Sequence record: MN895436.1
DNA: 64,000 bases
DNA from: Escherichia phage teqsoen
Direction: 5' to 3' (one strand)
Part shown: in pieces, positions 10,970-63,177 of the stretch
Position numbering within the stretch: the stretch's first letter is position 1
How the letters are laid out: every line of letters starts with the position of its first letter
The notes under the pieces: model-generated
The model's input: only the letters and a program-made list of their open reading frames with translations
Database searches by the model: none
Told to the model about the DNA's origin: nothing
Translations under genes and position numbers: made by a program

Positions 10970-11218
10970 TTACTTCAATGTTACCACAAAGTGACGAACT
11001 GCTTTTCGTGCAGCAGAAGCCAGAGGCTTAGCATATTTAAGTTCATCTTTTTCCTGAAGCTCAGCAGCTAATGCAGTTTGAGCAGGATTCAGATGTTTGA
11101 AATAACGCAGGATTTCAAGAGCTTCGGCTTCAACATCAATAGATGCGCCATAGTTTTCGTGACCATTATTCCATGCGTTTCGTTGCAGTTCAAGAGCGTG
11201 TTGTAATTGTTTAATCAT
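10970..11218 (-). CDS. rIII: Lysis-inhibition accessory protein rIII (82 aa)
   Basis: 82-aa ORF located between the 30.x block and gene 31 as in T4; length matches recalled T4 rIII. Confidence 0.65.
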   Translation of the reverse strand: MIKQLQHALELQRNAWNNGHENYGASIDVEAEALEILRYFKHLNPAQTALAAELQEKDELKYAKPLASAARKAVRHFVVTLK

Positions 11219-16762: not shown

Positions 16763-16790
16763 AAAGTCCTCATGTTATGTCAGTAAGATT

Positions 16791-29540: not shown

Positions 29541-32500
29541 ATGGCCGAGATTAAAAGAAAGTTCAGAGCAGAAGACGGTCTGGACGCAGGTGGTGATAAA
29601 ATAATCAACGTAGCTTTAGCTGATCGTACCGTAGGAACTGACGGTGTTAACGTTGATTACTTAATTCAAGAAAACACAGTTCAACAATACGATCCAACTC
29701 GTGGATATTTAAAAGATTTTGTAATCATTTATGATAACCGCTTTTGGGCTGCTATAAATGATATTCCAAAACCGGCAGGAGCTTTTAATAGCGGACGCTG
29801 GAGAGCATTACGTACCGATGCTAACTGGATTACGGTTTCATCTGGTTCATATCAATTAAAATCTGGTGAAGCTATTTCAGTTAACACCGCAGCTGGTAAT
29901 GATATTACATTTACTTTACCATCTACCCCAATTGATGGTGATACTATCGTTCTCCAAGATATTGGAGGAAAACCTGGAGTTAACCAAGTTTTAATTGTAG
30001 CTCCGGTGCAAAGTATTGTAAACTTCAGAGGTCAACAAGTACGTTCAGTACTAATGACTCATCCAAAGTCACAGCTAGTTTTAATTTTTAGTAATCGTCT
30101 GTGGCAAATGTATGTTGCTGATTATAGCAGAGAAGCTGTAGTTGTAACACCAGCGAATACTTATCAAGCACAATCAAACGATTTTATCGTACGTAGATTT
30201 ACTTCTGCTGCACCAATTAATGTTAAACTTCCAAGATTTGCTAATCATGGCGATATTATTAATTTCGTTGATTTAGATAAACTGAATCCACTTTATCATA
30301 CAATTGTTACTACATACGATGAAACGACTTCAGTACAAGAAGTTGGAACTCATTCCATTGAAGGCCGTACATCAATTGACGGTTTCTTGATGTTTGATGA
30401 TAATGAGAAATTGTGGAGATTGTTTGACGGGGATAGTAAAGCACGTTTACGCATTATAACGACTAATTCTAATATTCGTCCAAACGAAGAAGTTATGGTA
30501 TTTGGTGCGAATAACGGAACAACCCAAACAATTGAGCTTCAGCTTCCTACTGATATCTCTGTTGGTGATACTGTTAAAATTTCCATGAATTACATGAGAA
30601 AAGGACAAACAGTTAAAATCAAAGCTGCGGGCGAAGATAAAATTGCTTCTTCAGTTCAATTGCTGCAATTCCCAAAACGTTCAGAATATCCGCCTGAAAC
30701 TAAATGGGTAACTGTTCAAGAATTAGTTTTTAACGGTGAAACTAATTATGTTCCAGTTTTACAGCTTGCTTATATAGAAGATTCTGATGGAAAATACTGG
30801 GTTGTACAGCAAAACGTTCCAACTGTAGAAAGAGTAGACTCTTTAAATGATTCTACTAGAGCAAGATTAGGCGTAATTGCTTTAGCTACACAGGCTCAAG
30901 CTAACGTCGATTTAGAAAATTCTCCACAAAAAGAATTAGCAATTACTCCAGAAACATTAGCTAACCGTACTGCTACAGAAACTCGTAGAGGTATCGCAAG
31001 AATAGCAACTACTGCTCAAGTGAATCAGAACACCACATTCTCTTTTGCAGATGACCTTATCATCACTCCTAAAAAGCTGAATGAAAGAACTGCTACAGAA
31101 ACTCGCAGAGGTGTCGCAGAAATTGCTACGCAGCAAGAAACTAATACAGGTACTGATGACACTACAATCATTACTCCTAAAAAGCTTCAAGCTCGCCAAG
31201 GTTCTGAATCATTATCTGGTATTGTAACTTTTGTATCTACTACAGGTGCTACTCCAGCTTCTAGCCGTGAATTAAATGGTACGAATGTTTATAATAAAAA
31301 CACTAATAATTTAGTTGTTTCACCTAAAGCTTTGGATCAGTATAAAGCTACGCCTACTCAACAGGGTGCAGTAATTTTAGCAGTTGAAAGTGAAGTAATT
31401 GCTGGACAAAGTCAAGAAGGATGGGCAAATGCTGTTGTAACGCCAGAAACGTTACATAAAAAGACATCAACTGATGGAAGAATTGGTTTAATTGAAATTG
31501 CTACGCAAAGTGAAGTTAATACAGGAACTGATTATACTCGTGCAGTCACTCCTAAAACTTTAAATGACCGTAGAGCAACTGAAAGTTTAAGTGGTATAGC
31601 TGAAATTGCTACACAAGTTGAATTCGACGCAGGCGTCGACGATACTCGTATCTCTACACCATTAAAAATTAAAACCAGATTTAATAGTACTGATCGTACT
31701 TCTGTTGTTGCTCTATCTGGATTAGTTGAATCAGGAACTCTCTGGGACCATTATACCCTTAATATTCTTGAAGCAAATGAGACGCAACGTGGTACACTTC
31801 GTGTAGCTACACAAGTTGAAGCTGTTGCAGGAACATTAGATAATGTTTTAATAACTCCTAAAAAGCTTTTAGGTACTAAATCTACCGAATCGCAAGAAGG
31901 TGTTATTAAAGTTGCAACTCAAGCTGAAACCGTAGCTGGAACATCAGCAAATACTGCTGTATCTCCAAAAAATTTAAAATGGATTGTGCAGAGTGAACCT
32001 ACCTGGGCAGCTACTACTGCGGTAAGAGGTTTTGTTAAAACTTCATCTGGTTCAATTACGTTCGTTGGTAATGATACAGTCGGTTCTACCCAAGATTTAG
32101 AACTGTATGAGAAAAATAGCTATGCAATATCACCATATGAATTAAACCGTGTATTAGCAAATTATTTACCGTTAAAAGCAAAAGCTGCAGATAGTAATTT
32201 ATTGGATGGTCTAGATTCATCTCAGTTCATTCGTAGGGATATTGCACAGACGGTTAATGGTTCACTAACCTTAACCCAACAAACGAATCTGAGTGCCCCT
32301 CTTGTATCATCTAGTACTGCTACGTTTGGTGGTTCAGTTTCGGCAAATAGTACATTAACTATTTCTAATACTGGAACGGCAACTCGTCTGATTTTTGAGA
32401 AAGGACCTCAAACTGGAACTAACCCAGCGCAGACGATGACTATCAGAGTTTGGGGAAATCAGTTTGGTGGCGGATCAGATACAACACGTTCTACTGTATT

Positions 32501-42725: not shown

Positions 42726-43361
42726 TCACAGTTCAGATGCTACGGTGATTACTGCTTCAATGTTTTCTGCCGAGCGTTTAATGTCAAGATACACATTACC
42801 GTTTTTAGCGATTTTACATGACATTCCGATATCAGTAAATTTCTGAATATGGTGTTCCATCATTTTGTATCCAAAAATTCGCATATTTCCATTGTTATTA
42901 ATTTCAAAATTACGAATTCCGTGAGTGCGTTTTTCTAAAATAGCAAGATAGTTACTGCGGTAAGTTTCAACCTTTTTAAGAACAAATCCATTTTCATCTA
43001 AAAGTTTTAACATGAGGTCTTTATCTTCTTCCATATCAGAAGTAATCTCGCGAGCTTTACGAGTTGCTCGTTTTTTCAGCAGTTCCGGAGCATTTTCCTG
43101 TGCATATAAAGTTGCTGCGTTTGAAATAATATCCTGAGCTTCACCTGTAATGATTAATCCATCACCAGATTTCTCCACCAGGCCTTTTTTAATCAATACC
43201 CCAATATTACTATTAACTACTGCGTTACCTAAATCTGGATGCACCTCACGAACTTCTGCAGCTGTAATGAAATCTTTCTTAGCAATAGTAATTAAAATCG
43301 CAGCAGTTTTTTCATTCAGAACATCGTTAGAAGCTTTGATGATGTAAGTTACTTTAGACAT
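42726..43361 (-). CDS. motA: Middle-transcription activator MotA
   Basis: 211 aa, MSKVTYIIKASNDVLNEKTAAILITIAKKDFITAAEVREV. Confidence 0.95.
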   Translation of the reverse strand: MSKVTYIIKASNDVLNEKTAAILITIAKKDFITAAEVREVHPDLGNAVVNSNIGVLIKKGLVEKSGDGLIITGEAQDIISNAATLYAQENAPELLKKRATRKAREITSDMEEDKDLMLKLLDENGFVLKKVETYRSNYLAILEKRTHGIRNFEINNNGNMRIFGYKMMEHHIQKFTDIGMSCKIAKNGNVYLDIKRSAENIEAVITVASEL

Positions 43362-58369: not shown

Positions 58370-59689
58370 TCACACATAAAACACATCATAACGACCACGG
58401 GTAACACCAACATAAAGAAGTTGTTGGGCCAATTCAGCATCTGCATAATGAATACAAGGCGTATAAATGAAAGCACGGTCTACAGACATACCCTGAGCTT
58501 TATGGAATGTTGATGCAGGAAGTGCTTTCACTTTACTAAACTGTGATTTAGCATCCCAAAAATCACTCCACGGAGCTTTTCCGCCTTTGTTCCAATTTTT
58601 ATAAGTTTCTGCAGTTTTACCTAAAAATAGGTTAAACTTATATAGCTCTTCATCAGATGAAATTATTTTAATCTTTTCACGATAATATTCATCATCGCCG
58701 TAAGTTTCTACTGTTAAATCCCAATGACGAATTAAGTATTCTCCAGGAACACCACGGGCTTTAACAAACGTTGATGTATACTCTGCTTCTATAATACGAA
58801 CTAATTGTCCGTTATTAAAAATAATTTCTGACACAGGCTTTCCATCAATTTTATATGTTTTAATTAATGGTTCCTGCATTACAATAATTTCACCTACAAT
58901 AAAATCTTTATCAGTTTCAAAAATCTTTTTACGAATAATGCTATTTAACTTGTCAACAGATTTATTCGTAAATGCCATTACGCGATTTTCAAACAAATCA
59001 TCTAGAGATTTGACGATTGAAAAATAATTTACCATAAAATCGCGTAAAGCGGTATCACCTGTAAATCCACGTACTCCATGCCCGTCAACAACTTTATCAT
59101 AAATCCACTTACCGTTACGAACATCAGTAGCTACATCAATAATAGGAGCATTACTGCGTTTAACTTCAGTAAGTTCACACTGATAAAAATCTTTGTGTGT
59201 AAAGAATGGACTGATATAAGCAGTATTTTCTCCTGGGTCAACAGGTCTAATTTGCTTATTATCGCCTATTCCAATTATAGTACACCACGGTGGGATAGTT
59301 GAAAGCAAAATTTTGAAGAGCTTTCTATCATACATTGACACTTCGTCGCAGATTAATACCCTGCATTTAGCTAAATCTGGTACTTCTTTTTGTTCAAAAA
59401 GAACGTTTTCTTCATACGTAACTGGGTTAATTTTAAGAATACTGTGAATAGTACTCGCTTCTTTCCCCGACAGTTTTGAAAGAATCTTTTTAGCTGCATG
59501 AGTAGGAGCTGCCAAAATGATACCAGTTTCACCCATAGATATTAAAGCTTCAATGATGAATTTTGTAAGAGTAGTCTTACCAGTACCAGCAGGTCCATTA
59601 ATAGTTACATGATGTTTCTTTTCTTTAATAGCCCTCATAACGATGTTAAAGGCATTTTTCTGGCCTTCTGTCAAATCATCAAATGTCAT
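58370..59689 (-). CDS. dda: Dda DNA helicase (SF1)
   Basis: 439 aa; Walker A GPAGTGKTT; T4 Dda length. Confidence 0.95.
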   Translation of the reverse strand: MTFDDLTEGQKNAFNIVMRAIKEKKHHVTINGPAGTGKTTLTKFIIEALISMGETGIILAAPTHAAKKILSKLSGKEASTIHSILKINPVTYEENVLFEQKEVPDLAKCRVLICDEVSMYDRKLFKILLSTIPPWCTIIGIGDNKQIRPVDPGENTAYISPFFTHKDFYQCELTEVKRSNAPIIDVATDVRNGKWIYDKVVDGHGVRGFTGDTALRDFMVNYFSIVKSLDDLFENRVMAFTNKSVDKLNSIIRKKIFETDKDFIVGEIIVMQEPLIKTYKIDGKPVSEIIFNNGQLVRIIEAEYTSTFVKARGVPGEYLIRHWDLTVETYGDDEYYREKIKIISSDEELYKFNLFLGKTAETYKNWNKGGKAPWSDFWDAKSQFSKVKALPASTFHKAQGMSVDRAFIYTPCIHYADAELAQQLLYVGVTRGRYDVFYV

Positions 59690-59997
59690 CGGAAAGTCCC
59701 TGCAATTGGAATACTAACAATACGCCCAGTATCTAGAATTCGTTGATATAATCTTTGTGTATCTACATCAGGCTTAACATGTTTAACTTCTATTTTATTA
59801 AACCAAAACTTGCGTGGAGTCTCAACTAGTCTTGGAATTCCCATACCTAAAGCTAGTTTATATTGGTCTTTGAGAGTAGTAAAAACTCTATCAGCAATCT
59901 CTCTTTCAAAAAATACAGCAGGACGATGTTCATCAAGTGGAACTGGCGCAGTAAATCCATCTTTGTCTCGGTAAACTATCGCATATACATAAACCAT
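59686..59997 (-). CDS. Hypothetical protein (103 aa)
   Basis: ORF with 4-nt overlap to dda. Confidence 0.5.
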   Translation of the reverse strand: MVYVYAIVYRDKDGFTAPVPLDEHRPAVFFEREIADRVFTTLKDQYKLALGMGIPRLVETPRKFWFNKIEVKHVKPDVDTQRLYQRILDTGRIVSIPIAGTFR

Positions 59998-59998
59998 A

Positions 59999-60745
59999 TT
60001 ATCCTCGGATAAGTTTAAAAATTGAACAATTTAGCGGGTATCCTCTTTTCAGTTTAAGTTTATCAATAAAAGACAAGTTTTGATACCGCTCTACACCTTG
60101 AATAATTTTATCACACATATCATATTGCATTTCTGCTTCTGACAACTTTTTCACAATTTTCCAATCCGAGCCTTTAAGAAGAACGTTCAGTTTAACAACT
60201 TCAGCGCCTTCTGCTATGCGAGAACCATCAATACGAGCTTTAAGTGCTATAATCCTTAGCTTAATGTCAGAGGTCTGTTTTGATTTAGAAAGCTGAGAAA
60301 TGTGTTCAATTCGGTTTTCACGTTTTTTCTGTATAGCTTTAATTTGATTATAAGTCTTTTTGATTTTAGCCCATTTCTTTTCATCTAAATTTAGTTTATG
60401 AACTTTTTTCGCAGATGAACGACCAATTCGCAAAGCAAATAAATCACGCTTTTCAATCAACTCTTCTAAAGTGTAATCAGAACGAAATGTATTATACTTT
60501 TTCTTTACTGCAATAACATTCCCTTTAATGTATCCAACGTTATTATCAAAACGTTCTAATGATAATTTCTCTCCTTCAATACGATTATCAAAAGGTTCTC
60601 CCGAGTAAGCACAAACTTTTTGATCTAAAATGTTCTTAATGTAATTGAAGTCTAAGTTAAAATCTTTAGAACGTCTTTTTGCAGATGCCTGAGTATGCTC
60701 TAAACGACGTTTAATTTTACGAATTTGATTATTAGACAGCTTCAT
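59999..60745 (-). CDS. srd: Srd-like protein (248 aa)
   Basis: Position between dda and modA as in T4; basic, coiled-coil-rich; assignment by synteny and size only. Confidence 0.5.
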   Translation of the reverse strand: MKLSNNQIRKIKRRLEHTQASAKRRSKDFNLDFNYIKNILDQKVCAYSGEPFDNRIEGEKLSLERFDNNVGYIKGNVIAVKKKYNTFRSDYTLEELIEKRDLFALRIGRSSAKKVHKLNLDEKKWAKIKKTYNQIKAIQKKRENRIEHISQLSKSKQTSDIKLRIIALKARIDGSRIAEGAEVVKLNVLLKGSDWKIVKKLSEAEMQYDMCDKIIQGVERYQNLSFIDKLKLKRGYPLNCSIFKLIRG

Positions 60746-60781
60746 ATTTTTCTCACATCTTACGGACGGTTAACTACTTAT

Positions 60782-60810
60782 ACTATAACATTTTTACCTT
60801 AACTTGTAAA
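60782..60810 (-). promoter_or_regulatory. Early promoter for srd (-35 TTTACA, -10 TATAGT)
   Basis: Minus-strand TTTACA, 17 bp, TATAGT. Confidence 0.5.
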
Positions 60811-60826
60811 CAACTTTATGTAAAAA

Positions 60827-60851
60827 TGCTTTAAAACTTTCATGGTATAAT
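60827..60851 (+). promoter_or_regulatory. Plus-strand middle-promoter-like motif (MotA box TGCTTTA, 12 bp, TGG-TATAAT), antisense to modA
   Basis: aaTGCTTTAaaactttcatggTATAATg on plus strand; no plus-strand ORF downstream. Confidence 0.3.
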
Positions 60852-60868
60852 GAATCTAAGTCCTTCCA

Positions 60869-61471
60869 TTATAGATTAAATCCTTCAAAATCAAGAGTAT
60901 AGATAGTGTATGTTGAATACTTTTTATACTCATATCTATCTGCAATTCTAAATACACTTCCAGCTGGTATCATTACTTCTTGTTCATCTGAAACTAATTC
61001 CATATTACGATAACGATGACTATCCGGAAACTTAAAGTTTGGATTGTATTCTTTACAGCGTAGAGCTTTTATAGCATACTCCTGGAAATTGAATACCATA
61101 GGAGCTTTGAATTCAAAAATAACTTGTGTGTTATACTCTAAACCGGAAGCAAAATGTAGAGCTATATTTTTATCATATGAAGCTGATACGACTTTATCAA
61201 ATGTAATAATATCAATTCCTTGATTTAATACTTGTTTAGTCTCAGCTGGAACACCTCTCCAAAGAGGTTTATCGTTTGGAACCAAACGAGATTTGATTAT
61301 TTCATTTAACCAAGTATGGTCATCTGGCTTATTAGTAATACAATGAATTAAAAGTTCAATTTCAGATAAATTAAACCCTTCAGAAAGTAATTCTTCACGA
61401 ATAGAAGCACGCACCGATGCATCCATTGATTTTATTTTAAAATCTTTTAGTTGCATTACTGAGTATTTCAT
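60869..61471 (-). CDS. modA: ADP-ribosyltransferase ModA
   Basis: 200 aa; ART-like R/S/E arrangement (WRGVP, VVSASYD, QEVMIPAG); T4 ModA length and position. Confidence 0.82.
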   Translation of the reverse strand: MKYSVMQLKDFKIKSMDASVRASIREELLSEGFNLSEIELLIHCITNKPDDHTWLNEIIKSRLVPNDKPLWRGVPAETKQVLNQGIDIITFDKVVSASYDKNIALHFASGLEYNTQVIFEFKAPMVFNFQEYAIKALRCKEYNPNFKFPDSHRYRNMELVSDEQEVMIPAGSVFRIADRYEYKKYSTYTIYTLDFEGFNL

Positions 61472-62091
61472 TCAACTACCTCAATATCATAAACTTTAAA
61501 TGTTCCAAACGAATCGTGTAATTTTTCTTTTGAAATAGAAGTTATTCTATACTTTCCAATTGGAATCATCCATTCTTGTTCACGCACAATCATCATTAAG
61601 TTATCAGTACGCTCTGAATCTAGCCCATCAGTATCTTCATACGTGTACTTGAACTCAGTATTAGGAGAAGAAAGTATAATATCGCTGATATGGTCAGAAT
61701 AATTAAAAGCTTTATCAGTTTTTAAGCGAAGTATTATTTTAGTAAAATATTCAGCATAAGAAAAAGAACATGCTGTGAGTAAACTAGTAGTAAATGAATC
61801 TACCCTGTTCGTTGAAAACACTTCTCCAACTTGTAAATCTTTAATAAGTTCTTCTGTTGATTTTGATATACCACGATATAACTGATAAGGTGATTTAGTT
61901 AAATGCTTTTTAATGATTTTATTCAACTGCCGATGAAGAGCTTCATTCTTTTTGGCTTCCATACATTGCCAAAGAACAGACTGCTCAAAATCAGTAAATT
62001 TTTCACAGACCTTTTTATACATATCATATTGAAAATCAACGCTTTCAGCTTTTATAGATAACTGTTCAACATCTGCAAGATTAATAATCAT
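61468..62091 (-). CDS. modB: ADP-ribosyltransferase ModB
   Basis: 207 aa; YRGISKS, FSTNRV, QEWMIPIG motifs; T4 ModB length and position. Confidence 0.82.
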   Translation of the reverse strand: MIINLADVEQLSIKAESVDFQYDMYKKVCEKFTDFEQSVLWQCMEAKKNEALHRQLNKIIKKHLTKSPYQLYRGISKSTEELIKDLQVGEVFSTNRVDSFTTSLLTACSFSYAEYFTKIILRLKTDKAFNYSDHISDIILSSPNTEFKYTYEDTDGLDSERTDNLMMIVREQEWMIPIGKYRITSISKEKLHDSFGTFKVYDIEVVE

Positions 62092-62117
62092 GATAGCCTC
62101 CGTATACTTCAGAAGCT

Positions 62118-62146
62118 ATCATATCATCGTTAGGAAGGAAAGTAAA
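62118..62146 (-). promoter_or_regulatory. Early promoter for modB/modA (-35 TTTACT, -10 TATGAT)
   Basis: Minus-strand TTTACT, 17 bp, TATGAT about 30 bp upstream of modB. Confidence 0.5.
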
Positions 62147-62158
62147 CAACTTTTTGAA

Positions 62159-62341
62159 TTATTTTGCCCAGGGAGCCCAAGGCGGAGGGTCAAGATGGTA
62201 TGAAGCTAGTTCTTCTAGAAGAGCATCTGGGGCTTCAATTCCATAATTCTGTAATACTATACGGTATTCTTTCTTATAATCACTAGAATCATTCTGGATA
62301 TTCGTAGAATGATTATCTTCTAACATCTCAAATAAATCCAT
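62159..62341 (-). CDS. Hypothetical protein (60 aa)
   Basis: ORF upstream of modB promoter. Confidence 0.4.
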   Translation of the reverse strand: MDLFEMLEDNHSTNIQNDSSDYKKEYRIVLQNYGIEAPDALLEELASYHLDPPPWAPWAK

Positions 62342-62349
62342 ACTAATTC

Positions 62350-62820
62350 CTAGCGATAAAAACCAAATTGACGATTAGCTTCAATAATCTTTCTTTCTTC
62401 TTCTGACATTCTCCAGCGTAGTCCAACATCAAAATGAGCCCAGACCATCTTAACAAATGCATTTATATCTTTAATATCTTCAATAATGAATGTTTTACTT
62501 TTGGAAGGCTGACTCGCTAATTTAACTTTATCGTCTTCAAACAGGTCAAAAAGACCATATTCATGAGCTCTTTTATAGCCTTTAATAGTTAAAGCTTCGG
62601 AAGAAGAAAATGGTGAATCTGTATTCTGCAAAATATCTTCAGTATGCTTTATAATTAGAATAACATTTTCTGGATATTTTCTTTCTTTTATATCTTTAAT
62701 TAAAAGATCCGGATTTTCTGCTAAAGGAATAATTAATGAGCACTTTTTATCAAGTGTATTTACTGATTTACCTTCTTTGGACATAAATTCTATTGAATAA
62801 TGTTTTGCTACTTCAATCAT
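62350..62820 (-). CDS. Hypothetical protein (156 aa)
   Basis: ORF; start overlaps stop of upstream small ORF. Confidence 0.5.
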
Positions 62821-62977
62821 GTGATTTCCTTTTGCCTACTAATGGACCGTCAGGAATTTTATTTTCCTGAATGTATTTTTCATTTTCTTCCATCATTTTA
62901 CTGCCAATTTTAAGAAGCAAATCCAAGGCTTCATTTGCTTTAGCCTTTGCCTCTTCTAACGTCATATCTTTGGTCAT
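62813..62977 (-). CDS. Hypothetical protein (54 aa)
   Basis: [54 protein letters not shown]; ATGA overlap with upstream ORF. Confidence 0.35.
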
Positions 62978-63177
62978 GATTTATCACCATAGATGTCTCT
63001 CATCAATTTAAGCGCTGAGCGCTCTAATTTCTTTTCTTTCTCAGCACTAATCATTGATTTCATCCATTCTTCCGATTCGTTCTGCATTTCTTTATTTGCC
63101 TGTTCAACCCAACCATCGTCAATATACATTGAGTTTGGTCTACTGAACCATTCAAGCATCTTCTTCAGAACTTTCAT
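62974..63177 (-). CDS. Hypothetical protein (67 aa)
   Basis: ORF in array. Confidence 0.4.

Follow-up and report, generated by a model that had tools for sequence, protein, structure and literature searches.

A predicted middle promoter facing backwards in the srd-modA spacer of T4-like phages, and its possible role in antisense control of modA and modB

The stretch of DNA analysed here, called the window below, consists of 64,000 nucleotides of Escherichia phage teqsoen (MN895436.1). The locus of interest lies near its right end, where the genes dda (58370-59689), dda.1 (59686-59997), srd (59999..60745), modA (60869..61471) and modB (61468..62091) follow each other on the minus strand. Both modA and modB encode ADP-ribosylases; the product of modA acts on RNA polymerase and the gene is about 99% identical to modA of T4. 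The whole segment from 60400 to 61500 is 99.3% identical to phage T4. An earlier note on this DNA had stated that all genes of the region are on the minus strand, which agrees with the T4 record, where that strand carries all genes from lysis gene t onwards; in fact, from asiA round to gene 4, over more than 80 kb, every gene of that record is on the minus strand. The window also contains motA (42726-43361), so MotA is encoded by the same genome. Between the srd start codon (ATG, 60745) and the modA stop codon (60869-60871) lies a spacer of 123 bp, and it is on the plus strand of this spacer, opposite to the genes, that we find a sequence with all the parts of a middle promoter.

The same spacer holds the early promoter that serves srd (60782..60810, minus strand), with a -35 element TTTACA at 60810-60805, a spacing of 17 bp and an extended -10 TGt-TATAGT whose hexamer occupies 60787-60782. 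In a sigma-70 scan it has 10 of 12 consensus matches together with the TG, and the annotations of phages fPS-65 and Lutter have a predicted early promoter in the same position. This promoter and the plus-strand site stand divergently, back-to-back, with 16 bp between them and about 83 bp from start to start, and they are connected by imperfect inverted repeats. The earlier note does not mention this arrangement. A search for a structured minus-strand 3'UTR in the srd-modA spacer gave a fold that was not significant (z = -0.9).

Several other features of the neighbourhood deserve mention in their own right. The srd 5'UTR carries a motif, CGTCCGTAAGA (window 60758-60768, minus strand), that is kept in five genera; it also occurs in L017 (~2660-2672), in L018 (DK-13, ~2662-2674) and in the srd leaders of L028 and L031, and in Jiaodavirus it is part of the opposite-strand promoter's spacer, with the potential for a small CGTC/GACG hairpin. 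Upstream of modB, the early promoter (GTTTAC ... TATGAT; window 62089-62146, minus strand) overlaps a 14-bp hairpin in which the -10 region pairs with modB's Shine-Dalgarno sequence (GGAGG) and AUG. Because this hairpin includes the promoter -10, it could form only on read-through RNA from upstream, where it would block modB translation. Finally, the mapped middle promoter Pdda.1 (T4 11,138) lies inside srd, at window 60110 on the minus strand, and scores 15.0 bits with the matrix described below; according to a preprint (10.1101/2024.04.04.588121), no NAD-capped T4 RNA is more abundant than its transcript.

The plus-strand site reads AAATGCTTTA, a 12-bp spacer and TGgTATAAT at 60824-60851 (60825-60852 is aaTGCTTTAaaactttcatggTATAATg). 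The first ten positions (60824..60833) form a MotA box with the core TGCTTTA at 60827-60833 and AAA before it, which fits the consensus (a/t)(a/t)(a/t)TGCTT(t/c)A, centred near -30 (PMC2988021). The spacer (60834..60845) ends in the three bases TGg (60843-60845) that make up an extended -10 (TGn), and the -10 hexamer TATAAT itself is read at 60846..60851. Where a -35 element would stand at a 17-bp spacing the sequence is AAAATG, a poor -35, and the MotA box is found in its place. The site thus has the TAnnnT -10, the MotA box consensus and the 12 +/- 1 bp spacing of MotA-dependent middle promoters, 12 bp being the commonest spacing of the mapped T4 ones (27/51). Downstream follow the discriminator and first transcribed bases, GAATCTAAGTCCTTCCA (60852..60868), which constitute a conserved element discussed below. 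With the 6-nt distance from -10 to start seen at mapped T4 middle promoters, the predicted +1 is the A at 60858 (T4 11,897), 11 nt ahead of the modA stop codon. T4 itself has the identical sequence at the corresponding site, window 60846 being T4 11,885.

To compare the site with known promoters, we took the 58 mapped T4 middle promoters of the 2010 review by Hinton (PMC2988021), all of them on the minus strand, and built a weight matrix covering the box, the spacer and the TGn/-10 from 50 of them; the srd-modA site was not in the training set. Over both strands of the whole T4 genome the site ranks first, with 23.1 bits, above every mapped middle promoter, and it ranks first again with the same score on both strands of the window. 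Mapped promoters make up 18 of the 20 top T4 sites, and the only two unmapped ones hold ranks 1 and 2 and are both on the plus strand: the srd-modA site and a site at 75,988 in the spacer between gene 3 and gene 2. The next plus-strand site in T4 reaches only about 15.6 bits. As a check on circularity, PuvsY, PnrdC.7 and P34i were dropped from the training set, and rank 1 was unchanged. None of 300 dinucleotide shuffles reached 23 bits (best-score mean 16.2, maximum 21.5), and the loose pattern TGCTTYA-N11-13-TANNNT occurs 9 times where 2.4 occurrences are expected. The earlier description of the site as a MotA box, 12-bp spacer and TG-extended -10 is therefore what the plus strand reads, and its designation as a consensus middle promoter is borne out by the matrix rank in the window and in T4 and by a box and -10 that are kept in seven genera.

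The 58 middle promoters compiled in 2010 do not include the srd-modA site; the entry closest to it is Pdda.1 at 11,138 (PMC2988021), and the promoter searches behind that compilation were aimed at gene-proximal promoters. Some perfect-looking sites, with GATT boxes, are silent on modified T4 DNA (PMC2988021), and sequence alone is thus no proof of activity. A literature search with the sequence of the site found no match, and a search for T4 antisense or start-site data turned up the preprint 10.1101/2024.04.04.588121 alone, in which 150 starts are given by dRNA-seq in T4, 22 of them antisense. Stranded RNA-seq of T4 wild type against motA-amber at 5 min is also on record (PMC6024815).

Conservation was followed first within the genus, as the number of variable columns per segment among 16 Tequatroviruses. 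The MotA box has 1 variable column in 10, a T to C change in AR1 that the consensus allows, and TGn with the -10 has none in 9; the rest of the spacer between box and -10 varies in 2 of 9 columns, the downstream element (60852..60868) in 1 of 17 and the srd 5'UTR in 14 of 31. The modA-proximal part of the intergenic spacer as a whole is little diverged at this distance.

Comparison with other genera reaches further. An opposite-strand MotA-type site is present in the spacer between the ADP-ribosylase gene and srd in Mosig-, Gapriver-, Dhaka-, Karam-, Gelderland- and Jiaodavirus, in spacers that cannot be aligned. When the sites of the seven genera are aligned on the -10, the GCTTT core and TATAAT are invariant while the spacer sequences are unrelated. 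In Mosigvirus, blastn similarity ends in the srd 5'UTR and the site is found on the same strand as AAAATGCTTTA, 13 bp and TGtTATAAT; in the whole genome of ATK47 (Mosigvirus), scanned with the T4-trained matrix, the srd-modA spacer site is again rank 1 (22.3 bits) and again opposite to the genes. The gene order ADP-ribosylase, srd, dda.1, dda is also found in four more genera, whose Srd proteins are 37-50% identical and which have an opposite-strand site in the spacer: Dhakavirus MX01 (17.7 bits), Karamvirus ZX13 (15.2 bits), Gelderlandvirus STML-198 (19.7 bits) and Jiaodavirus KpV477 (15.8 bits). Placement differs between genera, and in Karam-, Gelderland- and Jiaodavirus the early promoter is on the other side of the module. 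Gaprivervirus DK-13 (~2738-2766 of L018) combines TATAAT with a deviant box, CGCTTTT. Its MotA (MT611523.1, 81,225-81,824) is 33% identical to T4 MotA, and activator and deviant box may have diverged together.

MotA homologues are found among the matches listed for Jiaoda-, Karam-, Dhaka-, Mosig- and Gaprivervirus, that is for 5 of the 6 other genera; the Mosigvirus match listed is that of Shf125875, and the scanned ATK47 carries an annotated motA. Gelderlandvirus has no row among the MotA matches listed. Krischvirus keeps the gene order and has no opposite-strand site in the spacer (best 6.3 bits), and no Krischvirus MotA is among the matches listed. To our knowledge, RB49-type phages lack MotA. 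Judged by these alignments and scans, the predicted element is conserved as a promoter rather than as a stretch of sequence.

Taken together, these comparisons make it probable, in our view with good confidence, that the srd-modA plus-strand site is a genuine promoter. We infer that it would initiate in vivo and depend on MotA, and it would then be an unlisted addition to the known class of middle promoters, in an unusual orientation.

What could such a promoter make? The first plus-strand ATG (60910) opens 13 codons and has no Shine-Dalgarno sequence, and the other plus-strand ORFs have at most 59 amino acids and GTG or TTG starts. A coding function of the plus strand was rejected on these grounds, in keeping with the earlier note, which had reported that the first ATG gives 13 codons and that no plus-strand ORF follows. 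Since the site is on the opposite strand and no plausible ORF follows it, any transcript must run antisense through modA, its first target, and then modB, the second. Promoter geometry predicts an ORF-less RNA over 60858..62091 if it is not terminated, and its start at 60858 against modA at 60869-61471 on the minus strand agrees with the antisense RNA across modA and modB that the same note had expected of an active promoter. Its heading, antisense to modA, holds for this predicted transcript and not for the motif, which is in the srd-modA spacer rather than inside modA.

The predicted RNA has few features of its own. Shuffles fold as well as its first 200 nt do (z = -0.35), a search of 60000-63000 against Rfam gave nothing at E <= 1, and a hairpin scan found no clear plus-strand terminator after the promoter. 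Two weak terminator-like hairpins with T-rich tails (61253..61289, plus strand), about 400 nt past the predicted start and inside the modA coding sequence, provide a possible 3' end. Over 59.5-64 kb, 4 of the 5 terminator-like hairpins are on the non-coding plus strand, where shuffles lead one to expect 1.3 in total; those at 61253-61289, 62850-62870 and 63011-63023 might bound plus-strand transcripts.

The paired promoters suggest a switch of direction, with sigma-70 polymerase leaving to the left early and AsiA/MotA-modified polymerase leaving to the right at middle times. We envision the following sequence of events. Early in infection, unmodified sigma-70 polymerase would use the srd early promoter and read srd, dda.1 and dda in the leftward direction. 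With sigma region 4 remodelled by AsiA and MotA available, polymerase would be recruited to the MotA box 16 bp away, start at about 60858 and make a rightward, ORF-less RNA antisense to modA and then to modB. Middle-time expression of these toxic early ADP-ribosyltransferases would thereby be lowered, either by head-on collision with polymerases coming from the modB early promoter or by base-pairing of the RNA to the modB-modA mRNA in its 3' part. The ModA protein is very toxic, and how early expression in T4 is shut off is still not known (PMC2988021); it is this toxicity, together with the missing mechanism, that makes us favour a MotA-timed shut-off by antisense RNA or collision. Antisense control of modA and modB at middle times is thus our tentative proposal for what the promoter may do, the likeliest of the roles considered here although its chances are somewhat below even. 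It leaves one observation aside, as an antisense role does not explain why the site resembles oriF and oriG.

That resemblance, which the earlier note does not mention either, is the basis of the main rival explanation, which we consider unlikely as a main function yet worth setting out in full: a MotA-dependent promoter in the spacer would mainly make an R-loop RNA priming rightward leading-strand synthesis, and any antisense effect would be a by-product. The T4 origins oriF (uvsY) and oriG (34) each consist of a middle promoter and a downstream unwinding element, and their transcripts prime DNA synthesis (PMC3016281); P34i, the oriG promoter, also lacks an ORF and is antisense to the gene in which it lies (PMC3016281; T4 record). 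To judge by its sequence, the srd-modA site has the middle-mode promoter of such an R-loop origin. Moreover, the 21 nt of TGGTATAATGAATCTAAGTCC are identical in the srd-modA site and in PuvsY/oriF of T4, the two agree at 27 of 29 positions from -15 to about +17, and the stretch of downstream element in both is GAATCTAAGTCC. A 10-nt downstream matrix made from the six non-T4 genera only picks out exactly five T4 sites, with at least 6.7 bits, all others having 4 bits or less. These are the srd-modA site, 75,988 (plus strand), PnrdC.7, PuvsY (oriF) and P34i (oriG). The element has the consensus TATAAT-G(g/a)(t/a)TCTAAG(t/c)CC and is found at 60852-60868 (plus strand) and 31737-31749 (minus strand, downstream of P34i) in the window, and at 115,377-115,360 (minus), 53,331-53,320 (minus) and 75,994-76,010 (plus) in T4; the other mapped T4 promoters are without it. 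Each of the three members other than oriF and oriG is no more than 5.7 kb from an array-mapped origin, oriA (near soc), oriC or oriE, with P ~0.002-0.003 by permutation in a test that is post hoc and uses approximate origin positions, and a MotA-dependent transcript is thought to prime oriA (PMC3016281).

Several points speak against a replication role. The T4 record places oriA at 16,763, 4.9 kb away on the opposite strand and with the gene 56 transcript as its primer, and identity of the srd-modA site with oriA, which that record puts on the minus strand, was rejected for this reason. Measures of helix stability and AT content downstream of the start do not separate the known origin promoters from others. 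In fact, the segment from +1 to +60 of the srd-modA site is 72% AT and ranks 7th of 50, but the same measure ranks PuvsY 13th and P34i 38th and is thus not discriminating for unwinding elements. R-loop formation at oriF is also reported to be independent of specific sequence (PMC3016281), so what the shared element marks may be no more than a strong subclass of promoters. Concerted evolution of the srd-modA site and PuvsY is a separate matter and was set aside: in ATK47 the initial transcribed sequences of the two are only loosely alike, and the near-identity in T4 may therefore be lineage-specific.

A broader version of the replication hypothesis would make the five element-bearing sites an unrecognised subclass of replication-priming promoters, with the orphans as the missing rightward primers of oriA and oriE. 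We regard this as improbable. If it were true, each of the five T4 origins would have an element-bearing promoter nearby, and a srd-modA site that belonged with oriF and oriG would help to explain the primers of the poorly defined oriA and oriE.

The second orphan, in the spacer between gene 3 and gene 2 and antisense to gene 2, is a twin of the srd-modA site (T4 AF158101, 75,963-76,020, plus strand). It reads TAATGCTTTA, 13 bp, TGGTATAAT and then gggTCTAAGTCCcTTCCATT, ranks second in the T4 genome with 22.7 bits, and is also ORF-less and backward-facing. Mosigvirus ATK47 has a weaker copy of this twin at the same place (NC_055708.1, ~95,060-95,130, minus strand; 14.4 bits).

It could also be that the RNA is irrelevant and that what matters is the protein on the DNA. 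MotA, AsiA and polymerase parked head-on at the modA end would then block or terminate read-through from modB-modA into srd, or occlude the early promoter. The layout is suggestive of this, with two promoters back-to-back, just 16 bp from each other and linked by imperfect inverted repeats, and with no terminator-like site on the minus strand after modA in the hairpin scan. In Karam-, Gelderland- and Jiaodavirus, too, the module overlaps the srd 5'UTR or early-promoter region, which makes interference geometrically possible. However, placement relative to the early promoter is not conserved, which suits a fixed steric mechanism badly; conservation of the discriminator and of the first transcribed bases suggests selection for productive initiation; and MotA alone is a weak DNA binder (PMC2988021). 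Occupancy is on balance a quite improbable explanation, and so is its corollary, that transcription-unit boundaries are set at middle times in this way.

Least probable of all is that the site is a chance match or decaying relic, or that it is conserved for a minus-strand feature such as an UP element of srd or the modA 3'UTR. In its favour, T4 DNA is AT-rich, -10-like hexamers are common in it and promoter-like sites in a simple sigma-70 scan are no commoner than in shuffles; the box covers about -52 to -58 of the early promoter, the usual location of UP elements; and the modA-proximal part of the spacer has hardly changed within Tequatrovirus. Against it, no shuffle attains the score, the site has rank 1 in both T4 and ATK47, which belong to different genera, and PuvsY and PnrdC.7, both mapped promoters, have the same extended sequence. 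Seven genera have retained the box and -10 through the exchange of spacer and flanks, and in three of these the module has moved past the early promoter, which excludes an UP element or a fixed 3'UTR.

Timed phage transcription has its reference system in T4, where gene-centred promoter mapping has missed the top-scoring sites on the "wrong" strand. If antisense control of modA and modB is what the srd-modA promoter does, it would constitute a concrete and mutable early shut-off, with the genome's strongest consensus middle promoter directed at the toxic modA and modB. The site is kept across six Tevenvirinae genera shown to carry MotA, and in Gelderlandvirus.

The closest known systems are the 58 mapped middle promoters of T4 that depend on MotA and AsiA through sigma appropriation (PMC2988021), which have the same box, 12-bp spacing, TGn and sigma-70 -10. 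Unlike these, the srd-modA site faces against all its neighbours, is ORF-less, lies outside the 2010 list and is known here from its sequence. Among them, P34i (oriG, also ori(34); window -10 at 31755, minus strand) is similar in being ORF-less, consensus and antisense and in sharing the downstream element, but its place is within a late gene and its origin has been defined by experiment, whereas the srd-modA site sits in an early-gene spacer beside an early promoter. PuvsY (oriF, also ori(uvsY)) has 21 nt identical to the srd-modA site and a perfect box and -10. It drives uvsY mRNA in the sense orientation, with a 13-bp spacer and the box TGCTTCA, as against an antisense orientation, 12 bp and TGCTTTA at the srd-modA site. 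T4 also offers a precedent at a different locus, the sense and antisense transcription of gene 32, to go by the title of Belin et al. 1987 (cited in PMC2988021).

Outside T4, the nearest likeness is found in phage lambda. There, OOP overlaps the 3' end of cII and is a short, terminated RNA of 77 nt made from a constitutive promoter. The likeness is that a regulatory or toxic gene has, shortly past its 3' end, a promoter directed back at it, and that RNA duplex formation or interference is to be expected. OOP is constitutive and terminated, whereas the srd-modA promoter has no clear terminator and is predicted to be activator-dependent, and thus timed.
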